Assembly (NCBI GenBank): GCA_030602345.1
Contig: JAUVZX010000002.1
Coordinates: 71,049-135,048 of the forward strand
DNA: 64,000 nt
DNA from: Bacilli bacterium
Lineage (GTDB): Bacteria; Bacillota_I; Bacilli_A; RF39; UBA660
Reading direction: 5' to 3'
In this document: positions 14,511 through 35,223 of the stretch, piece after piece
Layout: every line of letters begins with the position of its first letter
Position numbering within the stretch: the stretch's first letter is position 1
The notes under the pieces: model-generated
What the model was told of the DNA's origin: nothing
The model's input: only the letters and a program-made list of their open reading frames with translations
Databases searched by the model: none
Made by a program: the position numbers and the translations under genes

Positions 14511-14587
14511 GGCGATTATGGTGAAGTGGTTAACACGGTAGATTGTGGTTCTATTATGCGTGGGTTCGATCCCCACTAGTCGCCCCA
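14511..14587 (+). tRNA. tRNA-His (anticodon GTG), with G-1 and encoded CCA
   Basis: Folded by hand. Acceptor GCGATTA pairs with TAGTCGC (one G-U), there is an extra 5' G (G-1) opposite discriminator C73, the T-arm is GTGGG-TTCGATC-CCCAC, and the anticodon stem GTAGA/TCTAT carries loop TTGTGGT with anticodon GTG. Confidence 0.85.
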
Positions 14588-14629
14588 TATTTAGGGTAAT
14601 AAAACCTTTTGGTTTTTATTGATATAAAA

Positions 14630-14668
14630 AACCTAGGATTTCCAATAGGAATCTAGGTTTTTTTGTCG
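14630..14668 (+). terminator. Rho-independent terminator after tRNA-His
   Basis: Imperfect palindrome CCTAGGATTTCCAATAGGAATCTAGG followed by T7. Confidence 0.55.
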
Positions 14669-14691
14669 TTTAAAAAGAAAGGTTTGATTAT

Positions 14692-14991
14692 ATGAAATTT
14701 GAAAAAGAAAAATTACCATTAAATAATAACTTATATAATAAGCTAAATAATATATGTAATTTTAGCAATATAAGGTTAGAAGTTGTTAATGGATTGATAT
14801 TTAAGGCTAAAGATATGAATATTAGTTTTATCGAGCCTCATAGATTTGTAATAGTTGTTAATGATATTAAATTAGTATTATTATGCTATGACAATTTAAA
14901 CTTATATTTATATGAAAAAGATAAACCAATAAATATACCGATATTAAAAGAAATAATTGATGGCATTAAAGGAGGAATATATAATGGCTAA
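14692..14991 (+). CDS. Hypothetical protein
   Basis: 99-aa ORF overlapping the start of the Rep-like gene; no motif. Confidence 0.3.
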   Translation: MKFEKEKLPLNNNLYNKLNNICNFSNIRLEVVNGLIFKAKDMNISFIEPHRFVIVVNDIKLVLLCYDNLNLYLYEKDKPINIPILKEIIDGIKGGIYNG

Positions 14992-15823
14992 GAAAAAATT
15001 AGGTATAGGAAATATTGAAATAAACAAAAAGTTCAAAGATAAAGAAGAAGCATATAGATATGCTAAAAGATTAATTGAAAAAATTAGATGTGTCTGCAAC
15101 GATAAAGCCGATAAAGGTTGGTATGCTCAAGCTATGGTAGTATGTAGCAACTTAAAAAAGGATGTAAGCACATTGAGATACGAAATAACGGATAAAAGAG
15201 GTAGGCCAAGGAAGAAACACGATATTAATAATATTATTGCTAATGGCTGGTATAAAGGGGATTATAAGACGGATTGGCATTTACATATATTATTAGTAAG
15301 TAAACCAAGTTATATGTTTAGAAATATAATAAAGAGTTATATAGATAAAAACTGGAACGAAGTGCCTAATGCATATGAAGTTGAGCCTTTTGATATAAAA
15401 AAATTAAATGTGGAAAAGACATATAAGAAAAAATGTAATATTACAATGGCAGATTATTTTATATGGCAATGCGATGAAGTGCTTTTCTATAATAGTAAAT
15501 TTGGCGAGGAAGGAGAATTAAAATATAGTTTAAAGGAATACTATAGAGAATATTTAAAATTAGATAGTGCTAAAAGAAGATTATATAGACAACATAGATT
15601 AAATCCAATGAGTGAAGAAAATTATTTAGAGAAAGAAAAAAAGATAGAAAGTAAATTTAAAGAAATAGAAGCTTACTTTTTAAATATAACCGAAGAGCAA
15701 GATAAAAAAGAGGTGGATGAATTTATGAGAAAAGCAAGAATAAATAAAATAATTGAGAGTAAGGAAAATAATAAAGTACAGAGTATTAGAAGAAACAGAA
15801 AAGATGAATATAGTTTGTTTTAA
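14984..15823 (+). CDS. Putative HUH-motif Rep-like protein (rolling-circle replication initiator / Rep_2-like)
   Basis: AGGAGG RBS before the ATG at 14984. The HUH-like block DWHLHILLVSKPS resembles pMV158 RepB KAHYHVLYIAKNP, and iterons lie directly downstream. The assignment is tentative. Confidence 0.35.
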   Translation: MAKKKLGIGNIEINKKFKDKEEAYRYAKRLIEKIRCVCNDKADKGWYAQAMVVCSNLKKDVSTLRYEITDKRGRPRKKHDINNIIANGWYKGDYKTDWHLHILLVSKPSYMFRNIIKSYIDKNWNEVPNAYEVEPFDIKKLNVEKTYKKKCNITMADYFIWQCDEVLFYNSKFGEEGELKYSLKEYYREYLKLDSAKRRLYRQHRLNPMSEENYLEKEKKIESKFKEIEAYFLNITEEQDKKEVDEFMRKARINKIIESKENNKVQSIRRNRKDEYSLF

Positions 15824-15889
15824 AGAAAAAAGCATATATATATGTAGTTAATATATTATCATATAATATACACAATAAAATATATAAAA

Positions 15890-16000
15890 ATCGTATAAAG
15901 AATTATATATAGAAAGTATAAAGACTTATATAAATTTTTATTGTTAAATGTATAAAGTTAATATGATTACTGTATAAAAAATGGCAAAAATCTTTATACA
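15890..16000. repeat. Iteron-like direct repeats GTATAAAG (4 direct copies plus 1 inverted)
   Basis: GTATAAAG at 15893, 15916 and 15950; GTATAAAA at 15972; the inverted copy CTTTATAC at 15992. Spacings are 22-34 bp, in an AT-rich region after the Rep-like gene. Confidence 0.5.
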
Positions 16001-16107
16001 TATCTAAATATGTGTTTCCTATAAATAAAGGGAATTTTAAGATTTTATTAGGAGTACTGTATATACTATTTCGGAAATTACAATAAAAAAGCATTAAAAA
16101 AAGAAAA

Positions 16108-16317
16108 TTACTTTTCTTTATTTTCTATTTTTATTAATTCGTTAGGAGTACAATTCAATAATCTACAAAATTCCTCCAAATATTTAAATGAAATTAATGA
16201 GGTTTCTCCTCTAATAATTCTATTCATATTTCTTGATGTTACATTCATATTTTGGCATAGCCAATATTTACTTTTATTATTTTTCTTTAATAGTTCTTCT
16301 ATATTTAATTTTATCAT
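16108..16317 (-). CDS. XRE-family helix-turn-helix transcriptional regulator
   Basis: MIKLNIEELLKKNNKSKYWLCQNMNVTSRNMNRIIRGETSLISFKYLEEFCRLLNCTPNELI is an XRE HTH. It is divergent from the downstream membrane-protein gene. Confidence 0.6.
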   Translation of the reverse strand: MIKLNIEELLKKNNKSKYWLCQNMNVTSRNMNRIIRGETSLISFKYLEEFCRLLNCTPNELIKIENKEK

Positions 16318-16425
16318 TTCTATCACCAAGTTAATTGTATAAAATATGATAAATATAAATAAGATACTTGCATTACCCACATTAATTATAATATAATGGT
16401 ATTGTATATGTGGAAGGAGATATTT

Positions 16426-17010
16426 ATGATAGTATTTGACATATTAGTTTATTTAATTATGGCAGGGATATTCGCATTGCCAATATATTTGATAGTTAAG
16501 AAAAGGGCGAAAAAAGGGAAAGTATTAAATGAAAATGGTAATTCTAAAGAAATAGTAAAGAAAGAAAAAGCATACGACAAGATAGATATGACACATATCG
16601 CTGGAATAGATAATATTCAAAAGACACAAGACTGTAAAGTTATCTTATATGCAGATAAAATAAATATTTATTTTACTAAGAATATGGAATTCAATGTTAA
16701 GAGTGAAAATATAAAAGGTATGAGTATCATATTAGCTAAGGATTTATTAGAAAAGAAAAAAAGTCCAGTTCTTCGCGGTATAGTTGGTAATGTTATAGCT
16801 GGTCCTGGTGGTTTAATATTAGGTGGAATGTCGGGTTTAAATAAAGGTAGTAAAAGCGAATATGTATTAATTATTAATTACTTATCAAAAAATGAAGAAG
16901 AAAAATCTTTAGTATTTGGAATTAAGTATGGAAAAGTATTAGCAGAAAACTTTATTAAGAAATTTGAAAATATAAATAACAAAAGCATGAAAATTGATGT
17001 AGAATTATAA
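16426..17010 (+). CDS. Hypothetical membrane-anchored protein with a Gly-rich segment
   Basis: N-terminal TM segment (MIVFDILVYLIMAGIFALPIYLIV), a Gly-rich stretch GIVGNVIAGPGGLILGGMSGL, and a GGAAGGAG RBS. It is divergent from the XRE gene. Confidence 0.35.
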   Translation: MIVFDILVYLIMAGIFALPIYLIVKKRAKKGKVLNENGNSKEIVKKEKAYDKIDMTHIAGIDNIQKTQDCKVILYADKINIYFTKNMEFNVKSENIKGMSIILAKDLLEKKKSPVLRGIVGNVIAGPGGLILGGMSGLNKGSKSEYVLIINYLSKNEEEKSLVFGIKYGKVLAENFIKKFENINNKSMKIDVEL

Positions 17011-17258
17011 GTCTAATACCTTTATTAGGCTTTTTTAATGCAAATGATGGCTTATTTGCTATAAATGAAGCTGTATTTAAAGAGTTATAATAATATTAAA
17101 TAAAATATATATGGAAAAGTATTTGAATGCTTAAAAGCCGATTTTATGGCTAAAAGCTCGATTTGCAATTTTCTCCAAAAAATTATATAATAAACTCAAT
17201 CGCAACTATTGCAAAAAAACAAGAAAATTGATATACTTAATAGGTAGGAGAAGATAAT

Positions 17259-18482
17259 ATGGCAAAACAAAGAAAATATAATGTAGTATCCTTATTTTCT
17301 GGTGCAGGGGGAATGGACTTAGGATTTAAAAATAAAGGATTTAACATAGTATGGGCAAATGATTTTTTCCAAGAGGCAGTTGATACATATAAAAAAAATA
17401 TTGGTGATCATATTGTTTTTGGAGATATAACAAAAATAAAGAGTGATGAAATACCTAATGATGTAGATGTTGTAATTGGTGGATTTCCTTGCCAAGGATT
17501 TTCTGTCGCTAATACAAAAAGAAGTATGAAAGACGAAAGAAATTTTTTGTATAAAGAAATGTTGAGAATAATAAAAGACAAGCAACCTAAGTTTTTTGTT
17601 GCAGAAAATGTAAAAGGATTGCTTTCCATGGAAAAAGGCAAAGTAATCAAAATGATAAAAAAAGATTTTGAATCTTTGGGATACAAAGTAGATGCAAGAT
17701 TGTTAAATGCTGCAGAATATGGTGTGCCTCAAGCAAGAGAAAGAGTAGTTATTATAGGTAATAAGTTGGGATTAGAAAATGTTTATCCTAAAATTACGCA
17801 TTGGGTTGATAGTAAAAAATATGAGTCTAAGAAAGAATTAAAGAAACCAAATACAGTTGAAAAAGCAATAAGTTTTTTATCAGATGTTAATGTCAGCTAT
17901 AATCCTATTAATTTAAATGGAGAGATTATATATAATCATATTGCTTCAACAAATGTATATGATAAATTTTGGGGGCGAAAATATAAAGTCAATCAAGCCG
18001 ATATATGTGATTATTTAAAAGAGTGGAGAAAAAAATCTGGTTGGTCAACAATGAGAGTTGATGAGCATTTTGGTTATAGGCATACAGCTGGACACTGGTT
18101 TAGAAAAGATAATGGGTCGGGGAGCATTCCAAAACCTAGTGATTGGTGGGAATTAAAAAAAATATTAGGATTTGACGATAAGTATGATAAAAAAGTAACT
18201 ACAATGGAAGAAAAAGAAATAAAATTTGAACAGTCATTAAGAATTACAAATTGGGATAGGCCTAGTGATACTATAACAGCAACTGGACCCGAAATACACG
18301 TTAATAAAGAGAGACGCCTTAGCGTAAGAGAATGTGCAATTTTACAGACGTTTCCTAATGATTTTATTTTTACTGGTAGTATAAATAAAATGTATAAACA
18401 AATAGGTAATGCAGTTCCAGTTTTATTAGCAGAAAAGATAGCAAATGAAATATTAAACCAATTAAAAGAGGAGGCTAATTAA
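17259..18482 (+). CDS. DNA (cytosine-5)-methyltransferase
   Basis: C5-MTase motifs: I FSGAGGMDLGF, IV GFPCQGFS, VI ENVKGL, X QIGNAVPV. Confidence 0.9.
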   Translation: MAKQRKYNVVSLFSGAGGMDLGFKNKGFNIVWANDFFQEAVDTYKKNIGDHIVFGDITKIKSDEIPNDVDVVIGGFPCQGFSVANTKRSMKDERNFLYKEMLRIIKDKQPKFFVAENVKGLLSMEKGKVIKMIKKDFESLGYKVDARLLNAAEYGVPQARERVVIIGNKLGLENVYPKITHWVDSKKYESKKELKKPNTVEKAISFLSDVNVSYNPINLNGEIIYNHIASTNVYDKFWGRKYKVNQADICDYLKEWRKKSGWSTMRVDEHFGYRHTAGHWFRKDNGSGSIPKPSDWWELKKILGFDDKYDKKVTTMEEKEIKFEQSLRITNWDRPSDTITATGPEIHVNKERRLSVRECAILQTFPNDFIFTGSINKMYKQIGNAVPVLLAEKIANEILNQLKEEAN

Positions 18483-18493
18483 TAGCTCCTCTT

Positions 18494-19492
18494 TTATAAA
18501 ACCTCGTAATATTTTCTTTGTCCGCTCCAATAAACGTTTTTAGAATCGTATCTTTTTTCAAGCCATGCATCGTTATAACGTCCAGTATCTCCGCTTTTTA
18601 CAGCTTCTAAAAATATCTCTTGATGGTTTCCTTTTTTTCTTTTAACAGTAAACCATCCAATTTCTTTGTTAGAATCAAAATATCCTAGTTTAGAACGACC
18701 TTCGATTCTTTGCCAATCGCTAGGAATATATACAGCGTTTTCTATTTTTTTATACATATTTTCTTTATTTAAATTTGAGTATTCAATTTCGTCGGTTATA
18801 TATTTTGGCTTAAAATATTCGCCATGTGATTTATTATAATAAATATAATTTTTGAAATTTGTAAATAGGTTGTTTTCAAAAAGATTACTTAGAAGACCGT
18901 TTGGCAAACAAGTTAGAATTAATGTTGGTGTTTTAGAGTCATTGCAAATGCTGAAAGCCCCTTTTCCACTATCTGCATAAACTATTTTTATTAAATAAGT
19001 TAATAATGGTTTGTTTGTCCTAGAATCCATAGCTCTTAAGTTTGATTGGATTTTAAATCCTGGGAATGGTGGAAAAGCATCAACATTGTCATTAAGAAAA
19101 GAAGTTTGATTATGTTCAAATTGTGTTGTTTTTATTTCTCCGCCATTACCTACTTTATCAATTGTTTTAACATCTACATTTAAAATTATATCATCCAGCT
19201 CAATTGCTATATCACTGCTTATAGGTGCCGAAAAGAAAGATTTTGTTTGAAAGTTATTATATAAATAGTATCTTAATAATCTCTCAGAAGCTTCCTTTAT
19301 CTTGTTTTTCTTACCCCATATTTCTTGTAATATTGGATAATATTCTCTTGTTTCTGCTTCAATATTTTTTAAGTCATCCAAGAATTCTTTTGAATTAATT
19401 ATCTTTTCCAATTTATCCATATATTTTTTTTCTAAATCTAAAATAGAATTTTGAATAATTGATGGCTTTATTTCTAAACTTTGATATGCCAT
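18494..19492 (-). CDS. Putative Type II restriction endonuclease (uncharacterised family)
   Basis: 332-aa ORF convergent with the C5-MTase and 11 bp from its stop. The possible PD-(D/E)xK-like segment SDIAIELDDIILNVDVKT is the only motif. The assignment rests on context. Confidence 0.4.
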   Translation of the reverse strand: MAYQSLEIKPSIIQNSILDLEKKYMDKLEKIINSKEFLDDLKNIEAETREYYPILQEIWGKKNKIKEASERLLRYYLYNNFQTKSFFSAPISSDIAIELDDIILNVDVKTIDKVGNGGEIKTTQFEHNQTSFLNDNVDAFPPFPGFKIQSNLRAMDSRTNKPLLTYLIKIVYADSGKGAFSICNDSKTPTLILTCLPNGLLSNLFENNLFTNFKNYIYYNKSHGEYFKPKYITDEIEYSNLNKENMYKKIENAVYIPSDWQRIEGRSKLGYFDSNKEIGWFTVKRKKGNHQEIFLEAVKSGDTGRYNDAWLEKRYDSKNVYWSGQRKYYEVL

Positions 19493-19607
19493 GTTATCAC
19501 CTCTTAATACATTATATCATTTAAATTCTATTTTTTGTTAATTTGGAATGCAATAAAGTTGGTTGAGAAGAAATAATAAAAAATATATAATTAATTTGGG
19601 TGGTAGA

Positions 19608-20108
19608 ATGAGTAAGTTAAATATATTATATGGTAATATATTTGATTATTTAGATGGGATGGATGCCATTGTTAATTCAAATAATCAATATATGATTTGT
19701 GGTAGTGGAGTTTGTGGGCAAATATATAGAAGAGCAAGTAAAGAAAAATTAGAAGAATACTGTAAAAATAATTTTAATGAAAATATGAAAGTTAATGAGG
19801 TTAGGATAACTTCAGGATTTAATTTAGAATTAGATATAATCCATATATATTGTCCCAAAGCTTATGAGAGTAAAGAGCCCTTAAAAGAACTGTTAGAAAG
19901 CTATGAAAACATATTTAAAGTTGCTAAAGAGGGTGGATATAAAAATATAATATCGCCTATTTTAGGGACGGGGATACACGGTTATAAAGAAAAAGAAGTT
20001 ATTAAAGAAGTATTAAGAAAACTAAAAAAGTTAGCAAAAAATTACAAAATAAATTTTTATTTAATTATATTTAAGAAGGAGAAAACGAATGGAAAAAATA
20101 GTTTTTAA
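19608..20108 (+). CDS. Macro-domain protein (ADP-ribose binding / deacylase-like)
   Basis: ILYGNIFD..DAIVNSNNQYMICGSGVCGQIYRRA...ITSGFNL...IIHIYCP..and..NIISPILGTGIHGY match the canonical macro-domain blocks. Confidence 0.7.
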   Translation: MSKLNILYGNIFDYLDGMDAIVNSNNQYMICGSGVCGQIYRRASKEKLEEYCKNNFNENMKVNEVRITSGFNLELDIIHIYCPKAYESKEPLKELLESYENIFKVAKEGGYKNIISPILGTGIHGYKEKEVIKEVLRKLKKLAKNYKINFYLIIFKKEKTNGKNSF

Positions 20109-20280
20109 TGTTAAAGAAGTAGCAAAATATTTATCGGTAAGTGAATCAACAATTAGAAAATTAGTTAGGGAAAATGGTGTTCCGTATTATAGGATTTACT
20201 CTAAAATTTTATTTAATAGAGAAATAATTGATTTATGGTTAAAAGATAAACAAAATAAAAATAATTATTTTGTTGAATAA
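20089..20280 (+). CDS. Excisionase-family HTH DNA-binding protein (Xis/MerR-like)
   Basis: FNVKEVAKYLSVSESTIRKLVRENGVPYYRI...EIIDLWLK matches the excisionase-family HTH. It overlaps the macro gene by 20 nt. Confidence 0.55.
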   Translation: MEKIVFNVKEVAKYLSVSESTIRKLVRENGVPYYRIYSKILFNREIIDLWLKDKQNKNNYFVE

Positions 20281-20439
20281 ATAAAAAACTGTTTTGGTAA
20301 TATGAATATTAGATTTTTTACTGTATAATGATTGTAGTTGAGTATTGTTGTGATATTAGCATAACAGGTTAAAATTTATGTAATGTGTTTTGGTATCAAG
20401 TAATACATATAAGTAAAAGTTAAATTAAGAGGTGAATAA

Positions 20440-22155
20440 ATGAATTATATTGCGGGATATGAAGAAAAATATGCAATAATTATTGGAATAAATGAATATA
20501 AAAATACAAACAATCTTTTATATGCAGTAAATGACGCGGTTGCTATTGCAGATTTGTTAGAAAAAAAATTTGAATATAATAAAGATAATATTGAATTAAT
20601 ATTGGATAAAGATGCAACAAAGAAAAACATTTTAGATAAATATATTAAATTAATTGAAAAGACAAATGAAAATGATAGTGTTATTGTTTTTTATGCAGGG
20701 CATGGCTATACACAAAGATCAAAGAAAAATGATGTTGGTTTTTTGGTTCCAACGGATGCCAGTGTTGAAAATATTAATACATTAATCAGATGGGATGAAC
20801 TTACTCGAAATGCTGACTTTATTAAGGCAAAACATATGCTCTTTATTATGGATGCTTGCTATAGTGGATTAGCAGTTACAAGAGGATTTAATCCGGGTAC
20901 AAGTCGTTTTTTAAAGGATATGCTACAAAGATATTCTCGTCAAGTTTTAGTAGCAGGTAAGGGGGACCAAGTTGTTAGCGATGGAAACGGACCACTTCCA
21001 GAACATTCGATTTTTACAGGTCATTTGATTGAAGGATTGAATAATAGCGCCAAGAATAAATATGGAATTATAACTGCCAACGGGTTAATGTCCTATGTTT
21101 ATAACAAAGTTGCTAATGATACTTATTCTAATCAAACACCACATTATGGATTTATTGATGGTGATGGAGACTTTATTATAAATATTAATGAAATAAGCAA
21201 CATAATCGAAAAAGAAACTTCAGAGGGGAATGATTTATTAATAGATATTCCTTCTGCGTTTGAAGGGGACAACGATAAAAATATTTCTGATGAATTGGTA
21301 GAAGAAGTTAAAGAATTAGTTTCAGAAGATAAGAACATTATTAAGCTAGAAGGCCTAGTGAATTTTGAAATAAGAAAAATAATTGAATTGACTTCATATG
21401 AACATTTTTCAGTTAATGAGACAGCAAATCAAACGATAATAGATGAACGAATAGAAAAATATGAAGACATAATAAAAAATTTGCAAAGGATAATTATAAT
21501 TCTCTGTTGTTGGGGAAAAGAAAAGCATTTAAGAATAGTTGAAAAAATAATAAGTATGTTAGCGAATAATAATAGTCAAATAGGTGGAACAACTTCATTA
21601 ATTAATTTAAGATGGTATCCGATAATGATATTAATTTATTCTGGAATGGTTTCATCTTTGGCTTCGAATAATTTTGAATATTTAAGTGCCATTCTAAATG
21701 GTAGAGTTACCAATTTTAAAAGAGGATATATGGAAAGCGATTATGCTGTTATATTAGCTTCAAATTCAATTACTGATACAATGAATATTTTTAATAAGCA
21801 TCCAGAGGGTAAAAAGTATCATTATCCTTTCAGCGAATATATTTACAAGAAAATTCAACCAATGCTAGATGACTTATTATTTTTGGGAAACACTTATGAA
21901 GATTTGTTTGATATTTCTGAGTTATTAATAAGCTTAAAATATGTTGATATTAAATTTAAAGATGAGGAAAGTAGAGTTTGGGGACCGCAAGGAAGATTTG
22001 CTTATAAATATGAGGATAATGAGGAAAAGCTTTTTGAAAAACTTTCAACAAAGAATATTTTGAACAGAATTAATATATTTGATAATGATGAAAATAGGAA
22101 GAAAAAAATTGTAGACCTATATCAAAAATTTTTAAAAGGAATAAATCGTTTTTAA
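20440..22155 (+). CDS. Caspase-like (peptidase C14) domain protein with an uncharacterised C-terminal domain
   Basis: N-terminal about 250 aa: YAIIIGINEYKN...AVNDA, the His block VIVFYAGHGY and the Cys block LFIMDACYSGL form a caspase His/Cys dyad. The C-terminal 320 aa have no recognisable motif. Confidence 0.7.
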   Translation: MNYIAGYEEKYAIIIGINEYKNTNNLLYAVNDAVAIADLLEKKFEYNKDNIELILDKDATKKNILDKYIKLIEKTNENDSVIVFYAGHGYTQRSKKNDVGFLVPTDASVENINTLIRWDELTRNADFIKAKHMLFIMDACYSGLAVTRGFNPGTSRFLKDMLQRYSRQVLVAGKGDQVVSDGNGPLPEHSIFTGHLIEGLNNSAKNKYGIITANGLMSYVYNKVANDTYSNQTPHYGFIDGDGDFIININEISNIIEKETSEGNDLLIDIPSAFEGDNDKNISDELVEEVKELVSEDKNIIKLEGLVNFEIRKIIELTSYEHFSVNETANQTIIDERIEKYEDIIKNLQRIIIILCCWGKEKHLRIVEKIISMLANNNSQIGGTTSLINLRWYPIMILIYSGMVSSLASNNFEYLSAILNGRVTNFKRGYMESDYAVILASNSITDTMNIFNKHPEGKKYHYPFSEYIYKKIQPMLDDLLFLGNTYEDLFDISELLISLKYVDIKFKDEESRVWGPQGRFAYKYEDNEEKLFEKLSTKNILNRINIFDNDENRKKKIVDLYQKFLKGINRF

Positions 22156-22330
22156 ATGTTTACTTTTACAAAGACTTTAAATCAATATGATTTAGGTCTT
22201 TTTTTGTATTTGAAAAGGTATAATATTTAATTTTTAAATGTTTTAAAAGTATTTAAACTTTTTTAAAGAAAACCCTTGAGATTATGACAAAGGGTCTATA
22301 ATATATATTTTATGGTAAGGAGGGTCCATG

Positions 22331-22921
22331 ATGAATAATAGAATTTATGGATATGCGAGAGTGTCGAGCAAAGAGCAAAACGAGGAAAGGCAAATAAAAT
22401 CACTAATAGAAAACGGTGTAGAAGAAAGATTTATATTTGTTGATAAACAAAGTGGAAAAGATTTTAATAGAAGCCAATATCAAGTTTTAAAAAATGCTTT
22501 AAGAGAAAATGATATATTAGTTATTAAGTCAATTGATAGATTAGGTCGTAATTATAATATGATTATTGAAGAATGGCGAGATATTACTAAGAATATAAAA
22601 GCTGATATCAAAATAATTGATTTACCCATTATAAATACAGATAGAAATAAAGAATTATTAGGGACTGTTATTAGTGATATAGTATTAGGTTTATTATCTT
22701 ATGTTGCAGAACAAGAAAGAGCTTTTATTAAACAGCGACAAAAAGAAGGAATAAATAATGCTATGAATAAAGGGATTAAGTTTGGTAGACCAAAGATTAA
22801 TAAACCACAAAATTTTGATATTATTATTAGGAAATGGAAAAATAAAGATATTAAAACTAAAGAAGCGATGGAGTTATTAGAATTAAAGCCAAATACTTTT
22901 TACAATATGATAAAAATGTAA
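22331..22921 (+). CDS. Small serine recombinase (resolvase/invertase family)
   Basis: IYGYARVSSKEQNEERQ catalytic Ser motif, about 195 aa with a C-terminal HTH. Confidence 0.8.
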   Translation: MNNRIYGYARVSSKEQNEERQIKSLIENGVEERFIFVDKQSGKDFNRSQYQVLKNALRENDILVIKSIDRLGRNYNMIIEEWRDITKNIKADIKIIDLPIINTDRNKELLGTVISDIVLGLLSYVAEQERAFIKQRQKEGINNAMNKGIKFGRPKINKPQNFDIIIRKWKNKDIKTKEAMELLELKPNTFYNMIKM

Positions 22922-23028
22922 AGTTTTGATAAAAAATAAAAAAAATAAAAAAAGTATTTACATATTAAAAGTTTTCTGATATAAATATTTTGAGGAGTTA
23001 ATTCATATTTTTATGTAATTAATGATTC

Positions 23029-23145
23029 GTGCAAAAAGTGCAAAAAATTAAAAGTGTAAAAAAGTTAAAATCTCAAAAAAGCAGAAAACGTAAAAAGTGC
23101 AAAAGTGCAAAAGTGCAAAAAAGTGCAAAAAAAGTACAAACGTTT
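23029..23145. repeat. Phased A-tract repeat array (GTGCAAAA units)
   Basis: GTGCAAAA(A) units begin at 23029, 23038, 23054(GTGTAAAA), 23097, 23105, 23113, 23123 and 23134(GTACAAA). Spacing of 8-11 bp predicts intrinsically bent DNA. An 11-bp inverted repeat pair TGCTTATAGAG (23151-23161) / CTCTTATAAGCA (23183-23194) follows. Confidence 0.6.
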
Positions 23146-23214
23146 AATAATGCTTATAGAGATTTTTTTGTTATTTAAAAACCTCTTATAAGCAAAAAAA
23201 GAAAGGAGGTTATT

Positions 23215-23517
23215 ATGAATAATATTAAATTATTGCCACCACTTGAAGAATGGGACAGCGATAATCAAGGTTTATATTATTATGGAGATTCAATAGTAAA
23301 TGCTGATGGTTCATATAGTATGGAAGTCTTTAAAATGCCATTTCCAAGAGAAGAAGTATTCTATAGGCGAAGAAATATACCATCAAATATGTTAAATTTA
23401 CCCCAATATGACACTTGTAAGTATTGTAATAAAATACTTATTGATGGCTACTGGAGAAGAATGCATATGTGTAGAGCATGCTATGATAAAAAGCCTTGGG
23501 CAAAACCATTGTTCTAA
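23215..23517 (+). CDS. Hypothetical small Zn-ribbon protein
   Basis: 100-aa ORF with C-terminal CKYCN...CRACY; AAAGGAGG RBS. It lies between the two recombinase genes. Confidence 0.35.
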   Translation: MNNIKLLPPLEEWDSDNQGLYYYGDSIVNADGSYSMEVFKMPFPREEVFYRRRNIPSNMLNLPQYDTCKYCNKILIDGYWRRMHMCRACYDKKPWAKPLF

Positions 23518-23604
23518 TATTTGAAGTTATATCACTTCTATATTTTGATTATATAGAGGTGATATAATAACATTGTAATCATTCTGATATTTGGAGGTGA
23601 AGAA

Positions 23605-25296
23605 ATGATAAAAAATGAAGTTCAAAATAAAACCGCAGTGTACATTCGTGTTAGTACAGATGACCAAGCTCGTGAAGGACATAGTTTAGATGAACAACTT
23701 GATAGAATTAAAGAGTTTTGTAATTATAAAAAACTTGAAATTTTGAAAGTTTATAAAGACGATGGTAAAAGTGCAAAAAATATGAATGGCAGACCAGAAT
23801 TTTTAAAAATGGTAAATGATGTTAAAAGTGGTAAGATAAATAATATTTGTATTTACAAGCTTGATAGATTAACTAGGTCAGTAAGAGACTTAGAGGAAAT
23901 ATTAACATTGTTGGAAGAATGCGATTGTGGTTTAATGTCAGTAAGTGAAGAAATAAATACAAAAGGTTATATGGGAGTGTTCTTTATAAGATTAACAATA
24001 TTGTTAGCTCAATTAGAAATAGATCAGACAAAAGAAAGAACAATAATGGGGCTAGTTGGAACGGTTAAGCAAGGTATTCCAATTGGGAAATTACCAATTG
24101 GATATAAAAGAGATATTAATAACAGTGATTTGAAATTGAGAAAAAAAGCGATTATCAATGAAGAAGAGGCACAGGTTGTTAGAAGAATATTTAATCTGTA
24201 TTTAAAAGGCTACTCATATTACTTTATAGCAAAGAAGTTAATTGAAGAAGGCAATGCAATGAAAAAATGGAAGGACTATGAAATACAAAAAATTATTAAT
24301 AATAAAATATATTGTGGCGATATAGAGCATAGAAAATCCATTAAAGATAAAGAAACAGTTATTTATGAAAATGTAGTTCCTCCAATTATTAGTAGAGAAG
24401 TATTTAATGAATGCCAAGTTTTAATTGAGAAAAATAAACATAGTTTTGGTGGCAGTTTGGAGTATATGTTTGGAAAAACTCTATATTGTAATAAGTGCGG
24501 TAGTATGCTTGGTGTTAGTTCAAATAAGGGAAAAGGAATTAAACATTATTGGTGTAAAAAGTGTAATAGCAGATTAAATGAAAGTAAAGTTGAAAAAGCT
24601 ATTTTAGAAAAATTAGAAAGTATTGAGCAATTTAATATAGCATTAACCTATAATGCTATTATGGTTGATGATGATAGATTGACTGAAATATTAAACAATG
24701 TAGAATTAGAAGCACCAGACGAAAGATTAAAAGAAAGAAAAGAAGAACTTAGAGATTTGTTAGATGATGCAGTTTATAAAGCAAATATTTCTAAAGATAA
24801 GAAAGAAAATGCGCTGTGGTCAGATATGAATTATGAAGAAAAGAAAACCTTTATTAATACTATGATAGAAGCTATTTACATAGATAAAATTAAAGGTACA
24901 AATCAACAAGATTATGATGTTGTAATTAAGAAAATCAGATTTAAGCAAAGCAGAGTTATGGCATTCTATAAATTAATAAACCAAGGTATTATTGATTCGA
25001 TAAGTGCCAAAGCAAATGCTTATTATAGTTCTTTTGCTTTAATTGATAAAGAAGAAGAAATTCAAAATTACATAAAAAAATTAAGGCAAAAGTATAAAAT
25101 AAAAGTTGATGAAATAGTTATTAGAGGCGATGAACCAAAAAGAAAAAATAGTTTAAAAAAGATGGATGATTTTTTTGAGGAAGTATATTTTAACAATGAT
25201 AAATTATTTAAACTAATTAAGGTTGGCAGAAAGAATGAATTATTAAAAGGAACCTTTAATAAAGAAAAACATATATTTATTAGCTTAGAAGATTAA
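23605..25296 (+). CDS. Large serine recombinase (site-specific integrase)
   Basis: TAVYIRVSTDDQAREGHSLDEQ catalytic domain and a recombinase domain. The Zn-ribbon CNKCGS...CKKCNS and a C-terminal coiled-coil region give 563 aa, typical of large serine recombinases. Confidence 0.85.
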   Translation: MIKNEVQNKTAVYIRVSTDDQAREGHSLDEQLDRIKEFCNYKKLEILKVYKDDGKSAKNMNGRPEFLKMVNDVKSGKINNICIYKLDRLTRSVRDLEEILTLLEECDCGLMSVSEEINTKGYMGVFFIRLTILLAQLEIDQTKERTIMGLVGTVKQGIPIGKLPIGYKRDINNSDLKLRKKAIINEEEAQVVRRIFNLYLKGYSYYFIAKKLIEEGNAMKKWKDYEIQKIINNKIYCGDIEHRKSIKDKETVIYENVVPPIISREVFNECQVLIEKNKHSFGGSLEYMFGKTLYCNKCGSMLGVSSNKGKGIKHYWCKKCNSRLNESKVEKAILEKLESIEQFNIALTYNAIMVDDDRLTEILNNVELEAPDERLKERKEELRDLLDDAVYKANISKDKKENALWSDMNYEEKKTFINTMIEAIYIDKIKGTNQQDYDVVIKKIRFKQSRVMAFYKLINQGIIDSISAKANAYYSSFALIDKEEEIQNYIKKLRQKYKIKVDEIVIRGDEPKRKNSLKKMDDFFEEVYFNNDKLFKLIKVGRKNELLKGTFNKEKHIFISLED

Positions 25297-25327
25297 ATAT
25301 AAGTAAAAAAATGTTATAAATGCTATA

Positions 25328-26821
25328 ATGATTTGTAAGGAAGTGTATGTAGTGGAAGAATTATTAAAAACAATTTATTTTGATTATTATAATATTAAAA
25401 GGACAAATAAATTTACTACTGATAAAGAATTTTTCAGATTTCTGTATAATTTAAAAAATTATAAAGATAAAAAAATAAATGGCAATGAAATATTAAAAAA
25501 ATATTTAGATCCTGTTGTAAAAGAAATTAGAGATAAAATTGGTAAAAACACTTTAAAAGATGATTTTTTTTCAGAAAAGAATTTTGTACATTTAACATAT
25601 CCTCTTGAACAAACTATAAAAAGATTACAAATTATATATATTAGTTTAGGTGAAGAAGAATGGAATAAAATTTTTAGTTTTAAATATAGTTTTTTTGTTG
25701 ATTTTATATTTTTTCTTATTAGAAGAGTTTTGTTATTTAATGATTATGCACTTCAAAAAGATAATAAAAGAAAACGAGAATATGAAGAAAGTTTTTCAAA
25801 ATCAACAAATTTTTACTTTACCAAAGATGAACTTTACAGCTTTTTTCCAAAACACAAAAAAGAGATAGATAAGATATTTAATATTATAACAATAAATATT
25901 TTTGGTTTTGAAAAAGAAGCAGATGTTTTTAAGATTATTGAAAATGACAATAAATATATATTATATTTTTTATGGGATTTCACATATTTTTTATACGATT
26001 TAATAGAAGACGAGATTATCAAATACTATGGCATTAATTCCAAAGAGTTAGATAAATATTATTTGAAAAGAGGTAAGGCATTAGAAAAATATTGTTACAT
26101 AAGCTTAATAGATGCTTTTCCCAAAACAAATATTAGAAGAAATTTATATTATGATAGTAAAAATGGAAATAATGAAATAGATATTATACTTGAAACTAAA
26201 AACGAATTTATTATATTTGAGCAAAAGAGTTCAAAATTTGATATCCATCAAACAAAAGATGATGAAAATTTAAAAAAAGCATTTATTAAAGCATTTGGAA
26301 ATAGTTTTAAAACACTAAACAATTTTTATGAATTTGCTAAAAATGGTGATGGTGTTATGTATTTTAAGCACGATAAAAAGAAAGTTAATATTGATTTAAA
26401 ACATAAAAAAATAATATTGATTCAAGTATCATTACACAACATAGAGTATATGCAAAGTAGCGTTCAAAAATTTGATAAAAATTTAATAAAACCAGTTGCT
26501 AATTACCCTATATGTTGGAATTTTATAGATTTTTTAACAATATTAGAACTTGCGAAGATGAATACAGAAATTGTAATAGAATATATAAATAAAAGATATG
26601 ACATTTTAAATAGAAACAAAGAAATTACTTTGGATATAGATGAAATAGATGCTATGGGATTTTTAACTGACTCTAGATATAAAAAACAATATGAGATGTT
26701 AACGAATGATCAAAACAATAATGTAGATTTAAGATTTATGATAGGAAATGGAGCGTATAGAAATGAAGTAAATGAACTAATGAATTCAAGATTTTATGAT
26801 ATGCTTTTTAATGTAAAATAA
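25328..26821 (+). CDS. Hypothetical protein with a putative PD-(D/E)xK nuclease core
   Basis: 497 aa; GNNEIDIILETKNEFIIFEQKSS fits the D...(E/D)xK core of restriction-like nucleases. It starts 32 bp after the large serine recombinase stop. Confidence 0.35.
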   Translation: MICKEVYVVEELLKTIYFDYYNIKRTNKFTTDKEFFRFLYNLKNYKDKKINGNEILKKYLDPVVKEIRDKIGKNTLKDDFFSEKNFVHLTYPLEQTIKRLQIIYISLGEEEWNKIFSFKYSFFVDFIFFLIRRVLLFNDYALQKDNKRKREYEESFSKSTNFYFTKDELYSFFPKHKKEIDKIFNIITINIFGFEKEADVFKIIENDNKYILYFLWDFTYFLYDLIEDEIIKYYGINSKELDKYYLKRGKALEKYCYISLIDAFPKTNIRRNLYYDSKNGNNEIDIILETKNEFIIFEQKSSKFDIHQTKDDENLKKAFIKAFGNSFKTLNNFYEFAKNGDGVMYFKHDKKKVNIDLKHKKIILIQVSLHNIEYMQSSVQKFDKNLIKPVANYPICWNFIDFLTILELAKMNTEIVIEYINKRYDILNRNKEITLDIDEIDAMGFLTDSRYKKQYEMLTNDQNNNVDLRFMIGNGAYRNEVNELMNSRFYDMLFNVK

Positions 26822-27211: not shown

Positions 27212-28057
27212 ATGAAATTATATGAAGGTCAAAAAATCACAATATTTACTAAACACAAAAAGGAGAATGCAATGGTGGAACTATTTAAAAATTCCATTGG
27301 TGGTGATATTGAAGTTTATGATAAATTTGATACTGATAAGCTTGGAACTTTTTCAAGAGAAATATCTAGAAAAAAAAGTCAAATAGATACAGCAAGAAAA
27401 AAAATCAAGATTGCTATAAAAAAATGTAAGGAAACCGATGTAATAGTTTCAAGTGAGGGTAGTTTCACTTCCCATCCTGATGCACCTATACCATGGAACA
27501 TTGAATTAGTTATGTTTTATGATGTAAAGAAAAAAATGGAAGTCTATGGTTTTTATGCAGGTTCAGAAACTAACCAGAGTCACATTTTGACAAACAATTA
27601 TGAGGAGGCTTTAGATTTTGCAAAAAAGATTGGTTTTCCATCACATCAATTGATAATGAGACCCGATAGCGAAAAGTCAAAGCATATAGTGAAAGATATT
27701 AATACCAAGTCAAAATTAAAAGAAACATTTGATTATTGCGTTTTGAAATCAAAAACAGGGAAAGTTTTTATAGAAACAGATATGAGAGCTTACGCCAATC
27801 CAACAAGAATGAAGAATATCGAAAAAGCAACAAAAAACCTAATTGACAATATACTCAATTTTTGCCCAAGATGTCAAGAACCAGGTTTTGTTGTAAGCGA
27901 AGTAATAAGGGGACTTCCGTGTTCGCAATGTGGATTTCCAAGTGATTTTCCTTTGGAGTATGTTTATAGTTGTTGGAAATGTAAAAAAACAGTGACAAAA
28001 AAAAGTGAGGAAGCAGCAACTGTTAATCCGATGTACTGTCATAATTGCAATCCTTAA
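27212..28057 (+). CDS. Hypothetical protein with C-terminal double Zn-ribbon
   Basis: 281 aa; C-terminal CPRCQ...CSQCG...CWKCKK...CHNCNP; no family recognised. Confidence 0.35.
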   Translation: MKLYEGQKITIFTKHKKENAMVELFKNSIGGDIEVYDKFDTDKLGTFSREISRKKSQIDTARKKIKIAIKKCKETDVIVSSEGSFTSHPDAPIPWNIELVMFYDVKKKMEVYGFYAGSETNQSHILTNNYEEALDFAKKIGFPSHQLIMRPDSEKSKHIVKDINTKSKLKETFDYCVLKSKTGKVFIETDMRAYANPTRMKNIEKATKNLIDNILNFCPRCQEPGFVVSEVIRGLPCSQCGFPSDFPLEYVYSCWKCKKTVTKKSEEAATVNPMYCHNCNP

Positions 28058-30448: not shown

Positions 30449-30480
30449 AAAGATGCTTATTAAGCATCTTTTGTTTTTAA
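30449..30480. terminator. Bidirectional terminator between convergent genes
   Basis: AAAGATGCTTATTAAGCATCTTTTGTTTTT is a perfect hairpin with flanking A/T runs, placed between the 29771 gene (+) and pflA (-). Confidence 0.6.
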
Positions 30481-31161
30481 TAAATCTTCTAATTCTTTAA
30501 TTCTATTTAGATTCATATCTTTCATATCTTTTAGTTTATAATCAATATTTAACTTTTTATATTTATCATTAGCAAGACTATGATATGGTAAGAGTTCTAT
30601 TTTTTCAACATTTTTAATATTTTTAATTTTTTCTTTTAATTTTAATATATGTGCCTCATTGTCGTTTATACCGGGCATAATAACGTGCCTTATCCATATT
30701 TTAGTGTTTAGTCTTTGACATGTATCTAGAAAGTCATTATTTATAACTTTACTTGTAATATATTTCTCATCAGCATCATTTATGCCTTTAATATCAAGTA
30801 ATACTAAATCAGTATATTTTAATAATTCCTCGTGTTTTCCTTGATAGCCTGAAGTATCTAAGCATGTATGAATGTTATTTTTTTTGCATTCTTTAAATAA
30901 TTCTGTTACAAATGCACTTTGTAATAAAGGCTCACCACCTGAGACGGTTATTCCTCCTTTTTCGCCAAAGTAATCTTTATATTTTAAAATATTAGTCATT
31001 AATTCTGATACAGTCATTAATTTGTTTTCTTTTATATTCCAAGTTTCTGGATTATGACAATAAATACATCTTAATGGACAACCTTGCAAGAATATTACGT
31101 ATCTAACGCCCGGTCCATCAAGTAGACCTGCTGTTTCGATTGAGTTTATATTTCCGAGCAT
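30460..31161 (-). CDS. pflA: Pyruvate formate-lyase activating enzyme (radical SAM)
   Basis: GPGVRYVIFLQGCPLRCIYCHNPETW is the CxxxCxxC radical-SAM motif of the PFL activase. Confidence 0.85.
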   Translation of the reverse strand: MLGNINSIETAGLLDGPGVRYVIFLQGCPLRCIYCHNPETWNIKENKLMTVSELMTNILKYKDYFGEKGGITVSGGEPLLQSAFVTELFKECKKNNIHTCLDTSGYQGKHEELLKYTDLVLLDIKGINDADEKYITSKVINNDFLDTCQRLNTKIWIRHVIMPGINDNEAHILKLKEKIKNIKNVEKIELLPYHSLANDKYKKLNIDYKLKDMKDMNLNRIKELEDLLKTKDA

Positions 31162-33369
31162 TATAATTCTCCATGGAAAGTTCTATTTATTACTTCTAAT
31201 TGTTGTTCTTTACTTAGTCTATTAAATAAGACAGCATAACCAGAAACTCTTATAGTCAAAGAAGGATACTTGTCTTTATTATTCATGGCATCAATTAATG
31301 TTTCTTTGTTGAAAACATTAACATTTAAATGGTGTCCTCCTTTTTTGAAATAACCATCTAAAATATTAACTAGATTTTCTTTTTGTGTTTCTAAGTTTTT
31401 ACCTAAAGTATCAGGTATGATTGAAAAAGTATTAGATACTCCATCTTCGCAAACATCTTTATATGGGATCTTAGCGACCGAATTAAGCGATGCTAATGCA
31501 CCATTTGTGTCTCTACCGTGCATTGGGTTAGCTCCTGGTGCAAACGCTTCATAAGCTTTTCTCCCGTCTGGAGTAGAGCCTGTTTTTTTTACCATAAACT
31601 ATGTTTGAGGTTATAGTTAATATTGAAAGTGTATGATAGGCATTTTTATATAATTTGTGTTTTTTAAGTTCGCTTGATAATTTTTTAACTATATCAACTG
31701 CAATTAAATCAACTTTATCATCATCATTCCCATATTTTGGATAATCACCCTCAATTATATAATCAATAACTAAATTATTTTCATCTCTAATGGTTTTAAC
31801 TTTAGAGTGTTTAATTGCTGATAAAGAGTCTGCTGTAACAGATAATCCTGCTGCACCGAATGCCATTAAATGTTTTACGTTGGAATCATGCAAAGCCATT
31901 TCGATTCTTTCATAAGCATACTTATCGTGCATATAATGTATTATGTTCATTGCATCAACGTATGTTTTGGCAGACTTTTCTAAGACTAAATGATAATTTT
32001 TTAAAACTTCATCATATTCTAAATATTCAGATTCTATTTTAGAAATTCCTTCTATGACCAATTCTTTAGTCAATTCGTCATATCCGCCGTTTATTGCATA
32101 TAATAAGGCTTTAGCAATGTTCATTCTAGCTCCAAAAAATTGCATTTGCTTTCCTAGTGTCATTGCTGAAACACAACATGCTATTGCATAATCGTTACCA
32201 TACATTGGTCTCATTAAATCATCATTTTCATATTGAATAGCATCTGTTTTGATTGATATATAAGAACAATATTTTTTAAAGTTTTCTGGTAAATTTACAG
32301 ACCATAAAACAGTCATATTTGGTTCAGGGGCAGGTCCTAAGTTAATTAATGTATTTAAATATCGATAGGTGCTTTTAGTTACTAAAGATCTCTTTTCATC
32401 AATCATTCCGCCTAAAGATTCAGTTACCCAAGTTGGATCTCCTGCAAAAAGTTCATTATAATCCGGCGTTCTTAAGTGTCTAACCAATCTTAACTTAATA
32501 ATAAATTGATCAATTATTTCTTGAGCTTCTTCTTCGTTTATTAAACCGTTTTCTAAATCTTTTTCGATATAAATATCTAAGAATGTTGCTGTTCTTCCCA
32601 AACTCATGGCTGCTCCATTGCTTTCTTTAACTGATGCTAAGTAAGCAAAGTATAACCATTGAGTTGCTTCTTTAGCGTTAGTGGCTGGTTTGGAAATATC
32701 AAATCCATACGATAAAGCCATATCTTGAGTTTCTTTTAAAGCTTTAATTTGTTCGTTAATTTCTTCTCTTAATCGTATTGTTTCTTCATTTATATCAATT
32801 AAATTTTTTAAATCATCTTTCTTTTGTTGAATTAAAAAATCAATTCCATATAATGCAACTCTTCTAAAGTCTCCAATAATTCTTCCTCGACCATACGCAT
32901 CAGGAAGGCCGGTTATTAAACCACTTTTACGAGCCTTTTTTATTTCGTTTGTGTAAGCATCAAATACGCCGTCATTGTGATTCTTTCTATATTGTTCGAA
33001 TTTTTTAGAAACATCCTCATTCATTTTATAGCCATAAGCATTTAAAGCACTATAAACCATTTTTATTCCACCATAAGGATTAATAATTCTTTTTAATGGT
33101 TCATCTGTTTGCAAACCAAAGATAACCTCATTATCTTTATCAATATAACCAGGTTTATAATTATTAATTCCTGCAATATTATCAGTATCAACATCTAATA
33201 TTCCTTTATCTAATTCTTTTTCTAATAATTCTTTACTTTTTGTCCAAACATAATTTGTTTTTACGGATGGTCCTACTAAAAAAGACTCATCGCCTTTATA
33301 TTCATGATAGTTATTTAATATAAAGTCTTCTACATTGATTTCTTCTTTCCATTTAATTCCTTTAAACAT
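31161..33369 (-). pseudogene. pflB: Formate C-acetyltransferase (pyruvate formate-lyase), reading frame interrupted by a +1 frameshift in an A8 tract
   Basis: The 606-aa N-terminal ORF carries the catalytic CC ([11 protein letters not shown]). The 144-aa C-terminal ORF carries the glycyl-radical motif RVSGYAV. The frames switch within AAAAAAAA (the + strand T8 at 31583-31590), and seven A would restore [10 protein letters not shown]. This could equally be a homopolymer sequencing error. Confidence 0.6.
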
Positions 33370-33555
33370 GTTTCATTCCTCCTATCATCTAAAATAGTAT
33401 AGCATGTATATATAAATAAAAGATATATTTTATACAAATTTTCAATGTCTTTTACAAACGTTTTCCATATAATATTTTTATTATAATGATAGTTAATTTT
33501 TAATGAAAATAAATTTTAAAACAACAAAAAAAGATGCTTTAGCACCTTTGAATTG

Positions 33556-35136: not shown

Positions 35137-35223
35137 AAGTTCCTCTTTTCAACTAGTCAATTATACTAGAGTTGTCTTAAAAGTGCAACTAGTACTTTTT
35201 TGATAAATAAAATGTCTGAAAAA

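Follow-up and report, generated by a model that had tools for sequence, protein, structure and literature searches.

The question raised by this locus is what a bacterial caspase-like protease does when it is followed by a large C-terminal region and accompanied by no recognisable sensor. The window analysed here is a stretch of 64,000 nucleotides from a Bacilli bacterium (contig JAUVZX010000002.1, positions 71,049 to 135,048 of the forward strand), and the gene in question occupies its positions 20440 to 22155. A sequence-only reading had described the product as a caspase-like protein with an intact catalytic dyad and an unassigned C-terminal region of about 320 aa that could sense or target a substrate; it proposed structure prediction with Foldseek, and a homologue search with the C-terminal region alone, as the means of placing it. 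With a rough probability of 0.55, the single protein is by itself a complete conflict system, most likely for anti-phage defence of the abortive-infection type, in which the caspase would be the effector and the C-terminal domain (the C-domain) the sensor or autoregulator. It is best described as the caspase-bearing, and commonest, variant of the uncharacterised systems built on the C-domain of PDC-S65, a single-gene candidate from a ‘guilt-by-embedding’ screen (bioRxiv 10.1101/2024.01.29.577857).

The gene and its domains

The open reading frame (ORF) listing gives an ATG start and a product of 571 aa, for which full-length homologues of 37–67% identity are found. The GC content is 23–33% across the window, and the ORF lies in DNA of 27% GC. 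As stop codons are frequent in DNA this rich in AT, a 1.7-kb ORF with homologues in many phyla is not a product of chance, and the ORF is genuine. The gene and its parts are as follows.

20440..22155, plus strand: caspase/C-domain fusion gene, complete with stop codon (ORF call and full-length homologues)
20467..21174, plus strand: Peptidase_C14 caspase-like protease domain, residues 10-245 (Pfam, AlphaFold2 model, Foldseek)
20701..20703, plus strand: codon of catalytic His88, in the AGHG motif (motif position)
20857..20859, plus strand: codon of catalytic Cys140, in the MDACYSG motif (motif position)
21175..21294, plus strand: acidic interdomain linker, residues 246-285, poorly conserved (low predicted local distance difference test score, pLDDT; low identity)
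21295..22140, plus strand: all-alpha C-terminal domain (PDC-S65 C-domain), residues 286-567 (PADLOC PDLC05061, helical model)

The caspase domain

The Pfam family PF00656 (Peptidase_C14) covers residues 10–235 with an E-value of 6.6e-21 and 75.5 bits against a cut-off of 21.4. His88 and Cys140 are both invariant in a ten-sequence alignment of the family (A4). The catalytic dyad is intact, as had first been read from the sequence, and the domain looks active. The AlphaFold2 model was built from a 38-sequence alignment (A3) and has a mean pLDDT of 84.4, the single-sequence run reaching only 35.6. In this model the caspase α/β fold ends at about residue 245, close to the residue 250 estimated before, and the pLDDT of the domain is mostly above 90, over most of residues 10–140. 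Comparison of the model with the PDB by Foldseek returns the yeast and Candida metacaspases, MALT1, the plant metacaspases 4 and 9 and Geobacter GSU0716, with E-values from 4e-9 to 1e-6; the relatives found in the PDB by sequence are metacaspases. By its sequence score, its dyad motifs and its caspase–hemoglobinase fold the domain is a member of the Peptidase C14 superfamily.

Some indication of specificity is given by Asp32. This residue lies in the segment LYAVND and aligns with LSGCEND of EcCaspase, the protease of the E. coli type IV Thoeris system. We take LYAVND32 to correspond to the GCxND motif, the Asp of which lines the S1 pocket of the Arg/Lys-specific metacaspases. The type IV Thoeris caspase is Arg-specific (bioRxiv 10.1101/2024.10.24.620036). 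As Asp32 matches this motif and that caspase is specific for Arg, cleavage after a basic P1 residue (Arg or Lys) is plausible for the window protein.

The linker and the C-terminal domain

The two domains are joined by a linker for which the model has low confidence (about residues 250–285; pLDDT 44–59 for the ten-residue blocks of 251–280). The mean pairwise identity is 60% for the caspase domain, 41% for the C-domain and 27% for the linker. The C-domain is modelled as about 15 helices and a small β-hairpin (residues 281–567, pLDDT about 80–97). The motifs conserved in the 38-sequence alignment are KE(Y)LS...I.L, YE, WG, LRWYP (390–394), SEY (465–467), FLGxxYExxFDxxE (481–494) and GRFxxK (GRF being residues 518–520), and the acidic or polar residues E466, E487, D491, E494, R519 and K523 are nearly invariant. 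The segment IIIILCCWGKEKH, previously called Cys-rich, holds just two cysteines, which are adjacent (356–357); neither is conserved, and a Cys-rich metal-binding motif was rejected for this reason. The family consensus at this position is LLAxWG, with W358 and G359 the only conserved residues there. No 19-residue window of the 571-aa protein reaches a hydropathy of 1.6, and such a window occurs in three of 38 family members. The protein is accordingly predicted to be soluble, and a membrane or pore-forming C-domain was rejected for lack of transmembrane-like hydropathy.

Pfam yields no match to the C-domain in the window protein and no family shared by the 58 members scanned at E ≤ 10. NCBIfam has no match to it, and no credible relative is found among PDB sequences by single sequence or by profile. 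With the full-length model as query, the Foldseek matches in the PDB and BFVD fall in the caspase domain only, with nothing further significant in BFVD. The C-domain therefore falls in no well-characterised family, and its description as unassigned stands as far as Pfam, NCBIfam and the PDB are concerned. The description fails in that two PADLOC models of PDC-S65 are matched and the domain belongs to a widespread family. PDLC05061 is matched with an E-value of 5.6e-40, residues 286–566 lying on profile positions 307–587 of 592, and PDLC05060 with an E-value of 1.2e-26 over profile positions 215–473 of 503. Both models are matched by all of the family members tested (58/58).

Family size and partner enzymes

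When the C-domain alone was used as query, a word-indexed homologue search gave one match, and an exhaustive HMMER search was used instead. This returned 1,136 cluster representatives (50% identity) when the threshold was E ≤ 1e-3 and 79 when it was E ≤ 1e-30. Proteins containing the C-domain fall into two main length classes, of about 575 and about 300 aa. In the long representatives the N-terminal partner is mostly Peptidase_C14 (51 of 67), the others recognised being a Ser/Thr Pkinase (3/67), a ParA/MinD-like (CbiA) ATPase (2/67) and a TIR domain (1/67); several have an N-terminal region that Pfam does not recognise. The TIR of one C-domain fusion, P0056, strongly matches the Thoeris ThsB1 model.

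Stand-alone C-domain genes of about 300 aa lie directly 3′ of TIR_2+Y4lF genes in loci L005 and L006, and stand-alone genes directly 3′ of SduA_C Shedu-type nuclease genes are found in L008, L009, L110, L154, L194 and L195. Another TIR_2 gene has this position in L142 and a Hypoth_Ymh gene in L144, and in L091 a Trypsin_2 protease gene precedes the C-domain gene at a distance of 270 nt. In L007 (4521-6906) a TIR_2+Y4lF gene is followed by a 169-aa gene and then by the stand-alone C-domain gene. A gene of 1301 aa, SMC/AAA-like, and a DEAD helicase lie beside this row of genes. L129 (5351-7803) is composite: a TIR gene is followed by an abutting ParA-like/C-domain fusion. In L005 (2680-10607) the TIR_2+Y4lF/C-domain pair is flanked by an MmeI-like type IIG restriction–modification (RM) gene of 1167 aa and by two tyrosine integrases, a setting of the split form that is clearly that of a defence island and a mobile element.

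A less biased sample was drawn from metagenome contigs with a degenerate DNA motif covering WYP...FLGxxYExxFDxxE and contained 117 loci with an intact motif-bearing ORF. On a first pass these comprised 75 caspase fusions, 21 stand-alone genes, nine other fusions and 12 loci truncated at the 5′ end. Six of the nine other fusions turned out to be truncated or split caspase fusions, and 105 loci are therefore classifiable: about 81 caspase-linked, 21 stand-alone and three other. The caspase fusion thus makes up about three quarters of the classifiable C-domain copies. The C-domain is a constant module that is combined with many effector-type enzymes. The range of its partners, from caspase, TIR, kinase and ParA-like ATPase to Shedu nuclease, trypsin-like protease and Hypoth_Ymh, fits a role in sensing, as suggested from the sequence of the single protein, or in regulation.

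Distribution and gene neighbours

A scan that took one genome for each species found a caspase-fusion relative in at least 246 of these species-level genomes. The 246 belong to the Bacillota, Planctomycetota, Chloroflexota, Pseudomonadota, Acidobacteriota, Patescibacteria and other phyla, and the distribution is patchy and cross-phylum, with variable loci. The impression that the arrangement is unusual does not survive this count, or the cataloguing of PDC-S65. Pseudoalteromonas piscicida has a full-length homologue of 43% identity on a 1.3-Mb replicon, and one copy at NCBI carries the label ‘caspase family protein’.

The ORFs of the 80 loci that were kept were clustered all-against-all. No conserved neighbour and no conserved small neighbour gene was found across these loci, the sole recurrent neighbour family being a tyrosine integrase in 10 of the 80. 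The caspase fusion therefore behaves as a single-gene unit for which a partner gene is not required. Several relatives adjoin RM systems, Abi_C genes or integrases, and the caspase fusion does show a link to mobile elements and defence genes, though a modest one.

The closest homologue, P0183 (locus L092), is 60% identical over the C-domain and 67% over the full length. In L092 (1114-3042) a gene homologous to the HTH_17 gene of the window (57% identity by tblastx) lies downstream of the caspase gene, whereas in the window it lies upstream. The shared adjacency in reversed order points to either a cassette of two linked genes or a common family of elements.

Comparison with known systems

The E. 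coli type IV Thoeris system was recovered from its published TIR sequence. The protease domain of its EcCaspase is 28% identical to that of the window protein over 217 aa (E 3e-15). However, EcCaspase is only 321 aa long against 571 aa here, and its C-terminal part is unrelated to the C-domain (hhalign probability 0.1%). The caspase of type IV Thoeris has been characterised experimentally, and the system requires an adjacent TIR gene that produces N7-cADPR (bioRxiv 10.1101/2024.10.24.620036). No TIR gene is present among the ten genes scanned at 16396–26821, and none recurs among 139 sampled neighbours from the 80 homologue loci. Type IV Thoeris was rejected on account of the missing TIR gene and the unrelated C-terminal domain.

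An immune-type caspase with a sensor is likewise found in the protease–effector modules, in which a caspase or trypsin is linked to EACC1, Pepco, MBL or α/β-hydrolase (PMC12642450), and in the caspase-bearing Avs/STAND proteins. Pepco and EACC1 are small, unlike the helical C-domain of about 290 aa (PMC12642450). None of the EACC1, Pepco, MBL or hydrolase partner genes and no STAND NTPase domain is found at the window locus, where the flanking genes are the HTH_17 gene and a resolvase. The best NCBIfam match for the protease domain is NF047832, ‘caspase, EACC1-associated type’ (E 1.4e-22); its 80.2 bits lie below the cut-off of 140 and there is no EACC1 gene, and an EACC1 or Pepco module was rejected for these reasons.

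The Shedu (SduA) and TIR systems offer a different likeness. The stand-alone C-domain genes directly 3′ of SduA_C and TIR_2 genes are the counterpart of the caspase fusion, although the window protein itself has no nuclease or TIR domain. In canonical Shedu, which consists of one protein, the N-terminal region of that protein is regarded as the sensor. The metacaspases, orthocaspases and paracaspases (C14B; Yca1, pdb 4f6o; MALT1, pdb 3uo8; GSU0716, pdb 3bij) share the fold and the His–Cys dyad, but the window protein has no identifiable p10/p20 insertion or Ca-binding region, and neither the Ig or death domains of MALT1 nor the prodomains of metacaspases are related to the C-domain. A literature search on Y4lF and Peptidase_C14 defence systems found nothing specific.

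In its architectural logic the combination of a caspase with an all-α C-domain resembles VMAP of the vWA–MoxR ternary systems, in which an N-terminal caspase, TIR or trypsin effector is followed by all-α regions (eLife 2020;9:e52696). No vWA or MoxR gene occurs among the ten genes scanned at the locus or recurs beside homologues, and no VMAP family of Pfam matches the C-terminal region of the window protein or of family members. A VMAP ternary system was rejected on both grounds.

Proposed function and mechanism

A single-protein conflict system is favoured on the strength of the active-looking effector, the swappable partners, the single gene, the PDC-S65 match and the island context described below. 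From these we infer that the protein acts in defence and that the C-domain is the sensor, and also how the protease would be activated and what it would cleave. In the uninfected cell the C-domain would hold the protease inactive. On recognition by the C-domain of a cue associated with infection, which may be a phage protein or another perturbation, a conformational change or oligomerization would bring caspase domains together. Proteins of the cell and/or the phage would then be cut by the protease, probably after basic residues, with arrest of growth or of phage replication. Caspase-family proteases generally need dimerization, and activation is therefore probably by a change in oligomeric state. 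The higher identity of the caspase domain than of the C-domain fits a conserved effector with a faster-evolving sensor. On this reading the sensor that had been thought absent would most likely be the C-domain itself, lacking only from the curated domain libraries.

A broader proposal is more tentative, with somewhat less than an even chance of being right: that the C-domain is a new and widespread NTPase-independent sensor which detects infection directly and switches at least six unrelated effector classes. These would be caspase, trypsin-like protease, TIR, Shedu-type nuclease, Ser/Thr kinase and ParA-like ATPase. If this is true, the C-domain proteins would form a previously undescribed polymorphic anti-phage family with the caspase fusion as its commonest form, and a bacterial caspase could be activated without a STAND/NLR platform or a nucleotide second messenger. 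To our knowledge, the caspase-like immunity described in bacteria until now is linked to STAND/Avs platforms, to CRISPR-linked CHAT proteases or to TIR-derived signals. Here the caspase is coupled to a compact helical domain with no NTPase or partner gene. Should the C-domain be the sensor, it would be a portable sensing module, and the protein would offer a simple single-polypeptide model of how an infection cue licenses a caspase. A single-protein sensor–effector system of this kind is catalogued only as a candidate, and is not known to have been described with a caspase. A description of the C-domain family would close an annotation gap, as Pfam, NCBIfam and the PDB all lack it and NCBI, where it gives these proteins a name, has only ‘caspase family protein’ for them.

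Several points weigh against the conflict-system reading. PDC-S65 is itself a prediction only, as is the sensor reading of the C-domain family, and a literature search that included the source paper of PDC-S65 and its supplements gave no specific account of it. The window protein has the C-terminal 290 aa or so and the single-gene organization in common with PDC-S65, but the first 300 or so (or 210 or so) profile positions are unmatched by the caspase. The protein thus shares the domain only and is not a full-length member of PDC-S65. The TIR, kinase, ParA-like and unknown-N-terminus relatives likewise miss the N-terminal part of the profiles, and the N-terminal domain of the PDC-S65 model must therefore be something else, as no tested fusion partner matches it. 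The logic of a constant module with variable effectors fits a scaffold or an inhibitor as well as it does a sensor. The predicted template modelling score of 0.56 leaves the packing between the domains uncertain, and none of the phage records encodes a C-domain. Finally, the Pfam families of the 139 sampled neighbours are heterogeneous and mostly metabolic, transport or housekeeping, and about 5% of these neighbours match PADLOC models (among them type IIG RM, type II RM, HEC-06 and PDC-S11), so that enrichment in defence islands is weak.

Alternative explanations

Ordinary neighbours with defence-model matches at only this low frequency are what might be expected of a housekeeping or stress-response orthocaspase, which would act in regulated proteolysis or in cell death under abiotic stress, with a C-domain that targets the substrate or localizes the protein and with no link to phage. 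Orthocaspases that carry one or another uncharacterised C-terminal domain are widespread in bacteria, which also speaks for such an enzyme. The explanation survives best of the three considered here but is unlikely. It does not account for the pairing of the C-domain with TIR and Shedu-type nuclease, both typical immune effectors, or with trypsin-like protease and kinase, nor for the patchy occurrence across phyla at variable loci. The C-domain moreover matches a PADLOC candidate, and the gene in the window is on a mobile element beside an RM system.

Mobility is central to the second alternative, an addiction module resembling a toxin–antitoxin system, with the caspase as toxin, the C-domain as antitoxin in cis and stabilization of the island as its main role. 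The gene is part of an integrative island that also carries recombinases and an excisionase-like helix–turn–helix (HTH) gene, the integrase is the only recurrent neighbour of the homologues, and L092 retains the adjacent HTH_17 gene. The split forms, too, have the effector gene first and the C-domain gene second with small or overlapping gaps, as toxin–antitoxin operons do. Yet no mobile-element gene lies within 6 kb of most homologues, and a covalently fused antitoxin cannot make use of the differential stability that classical addiction needs. This alternative is slightly less probable than the orthocaspase. The roles of addiction and immunity can overlap, as in fused toxin–antitoxin defence proteins such as CapRel, and the proposal departs from a conflict system in emphasis more than in mechanism.

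The third alternative reverses the roles of the two domains. Here a latent effector or substrate, the C-domain, would harm the cell once activated by the attached or adjacent enzyme, be it through cleavage by a caspase or trypsin, phosphorylation by a kinase or a signal molecule from a TIR domain. There is precedent in the linked protease–effector modules, which are common and in which the constant non-protease partner is a death effector (PMC12642450). Caspase and trypsin-like proteases both pair with the C-domain, the near-invariant cluster of E466, E487, D491, E494, R519 and K523 could form an active site, and the disordered linker could be the cleavage site. Shedu-type nucleases and TIR domains are, however, typical terminal effectors and for that reason unlikely as upstream activators. 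This is the least probable of the alternatives, as the partners also include Shedu-type nucleases, TIR and Hypoth_Ymh, the single-gene form would have no other sensor, and the C-domain has no membrane-like segments, gives no NCBIfam EACC1 match and is unlike the β-barrel Pepco (117 aa) and the small EACC1.

The putative island and upstream signals

In the window the caspase gene lies in a region of lower GC content that extends from tRNA-His to a large serine recombinase. The features of this region, and the signals upstream of the caspase gene, are as follows.

14512..25296, no strand: putative integrative island carrying the caspase gene, from tRNA-His to the large serine recombinase, of lower GC content
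14512-14587: tRNA-His, at the left edge of the low-GC island
17259-18482: C5 DNA methyltransferase, 407 aa (Pfam E 3.5e-89)
18494-19492, minus strand: 332-aa ORF, candidate restriction enzyme, convergent with the C5 methyltransferase
19563-20108: stand-alone Macro-domain gene, 181 aa, upstream of the HTH_17 gene with a 20-nt overlap
20089..20280, plus strand: HTH_17/excisionase-like gene (Pfam HTH_17 E 2.8e-12; weak PADLOC mad1 match)
20348..20375, plus strand: promoter-like site TTGTGA-16-TAAAAT, in the 160-nt gap upstream of the caspase gene (consensus match only)
20427..20435, plus strand: Shine–Dalgarno-like AAGAGGTGA, with 4 nt between its end and the ATG (read from the sequence)
22328-22921: small serine resolvase, 197 aa, to the right of the caspase gene
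23605-25296: large serine recombinase, 563 aa, at the right end of the island
25328-26821: 497-aa protein directly after the large serine recombinase (DUF4143 in residues 237-302 is the only Pfam match)

Upstream of the island are core genes, for MreB and a family-4 glycosyltransferase, and a Cro/C1-type HTH gene stands between tRNA-His and the C5 methyltransferase. The valyl-tRNA synthetase of the window clusters with a protein from a ‘Bacilli bacterium’ metagenome-assembled genome, and the host is accordingly likely to be a low-GC relative of the Bacilli. The methyltransferase and the convergent 332-aa ORF probably form a type II RM system whose restriction enzyme is unclassified, the ORF having no match in Pfam, NCBIfam, PADLOC or the PDB. 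The region looks like an integrative element with defence cargo. No convincing att-type direct repeat was found around it, and its boundaries are for this reason approximate; a megablast comparison of the island with plasmids gave just a 53-bp match to a recombinase. The evidence for the promoter is weak, as promoter-like sites are no more numerous in the region than in shuffled sequence.

A functional link between the caspase gene and the Macro-domain gene was rejected. The Macro-domain gene does not recur beside caspase homologues (80 loci, 139 sampled neighbours) and is therefore treated as unrelated cargo; its product may bind or remove ADP-ribose or act in anti-defence. The 497-aa protein has a weak match to PADLOC PDC-S01 (E 5.6e-4) and may be another defence candidate.

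Two imperfect direct repeats of 38 nt, rich in AAAAGTGCAAAA units and 59 nt apart, occur at 23033-23129. They are intergenic, upstream of a 100-aa ORF (23215-23517), and could be a protein-binding or recombination site. Just past the island, 27212-28057 encodes a DUF6671 protein of 281 aa (Pfam E 3.5e-53) with C-terminal CxxC pairs. Further on, the otherwise plus-strand window has a block of minus-strand genes (30460-36246), where GC and AT skew are locally reversed (about 30–36 kb); the block may have been inverted or acquired separately.

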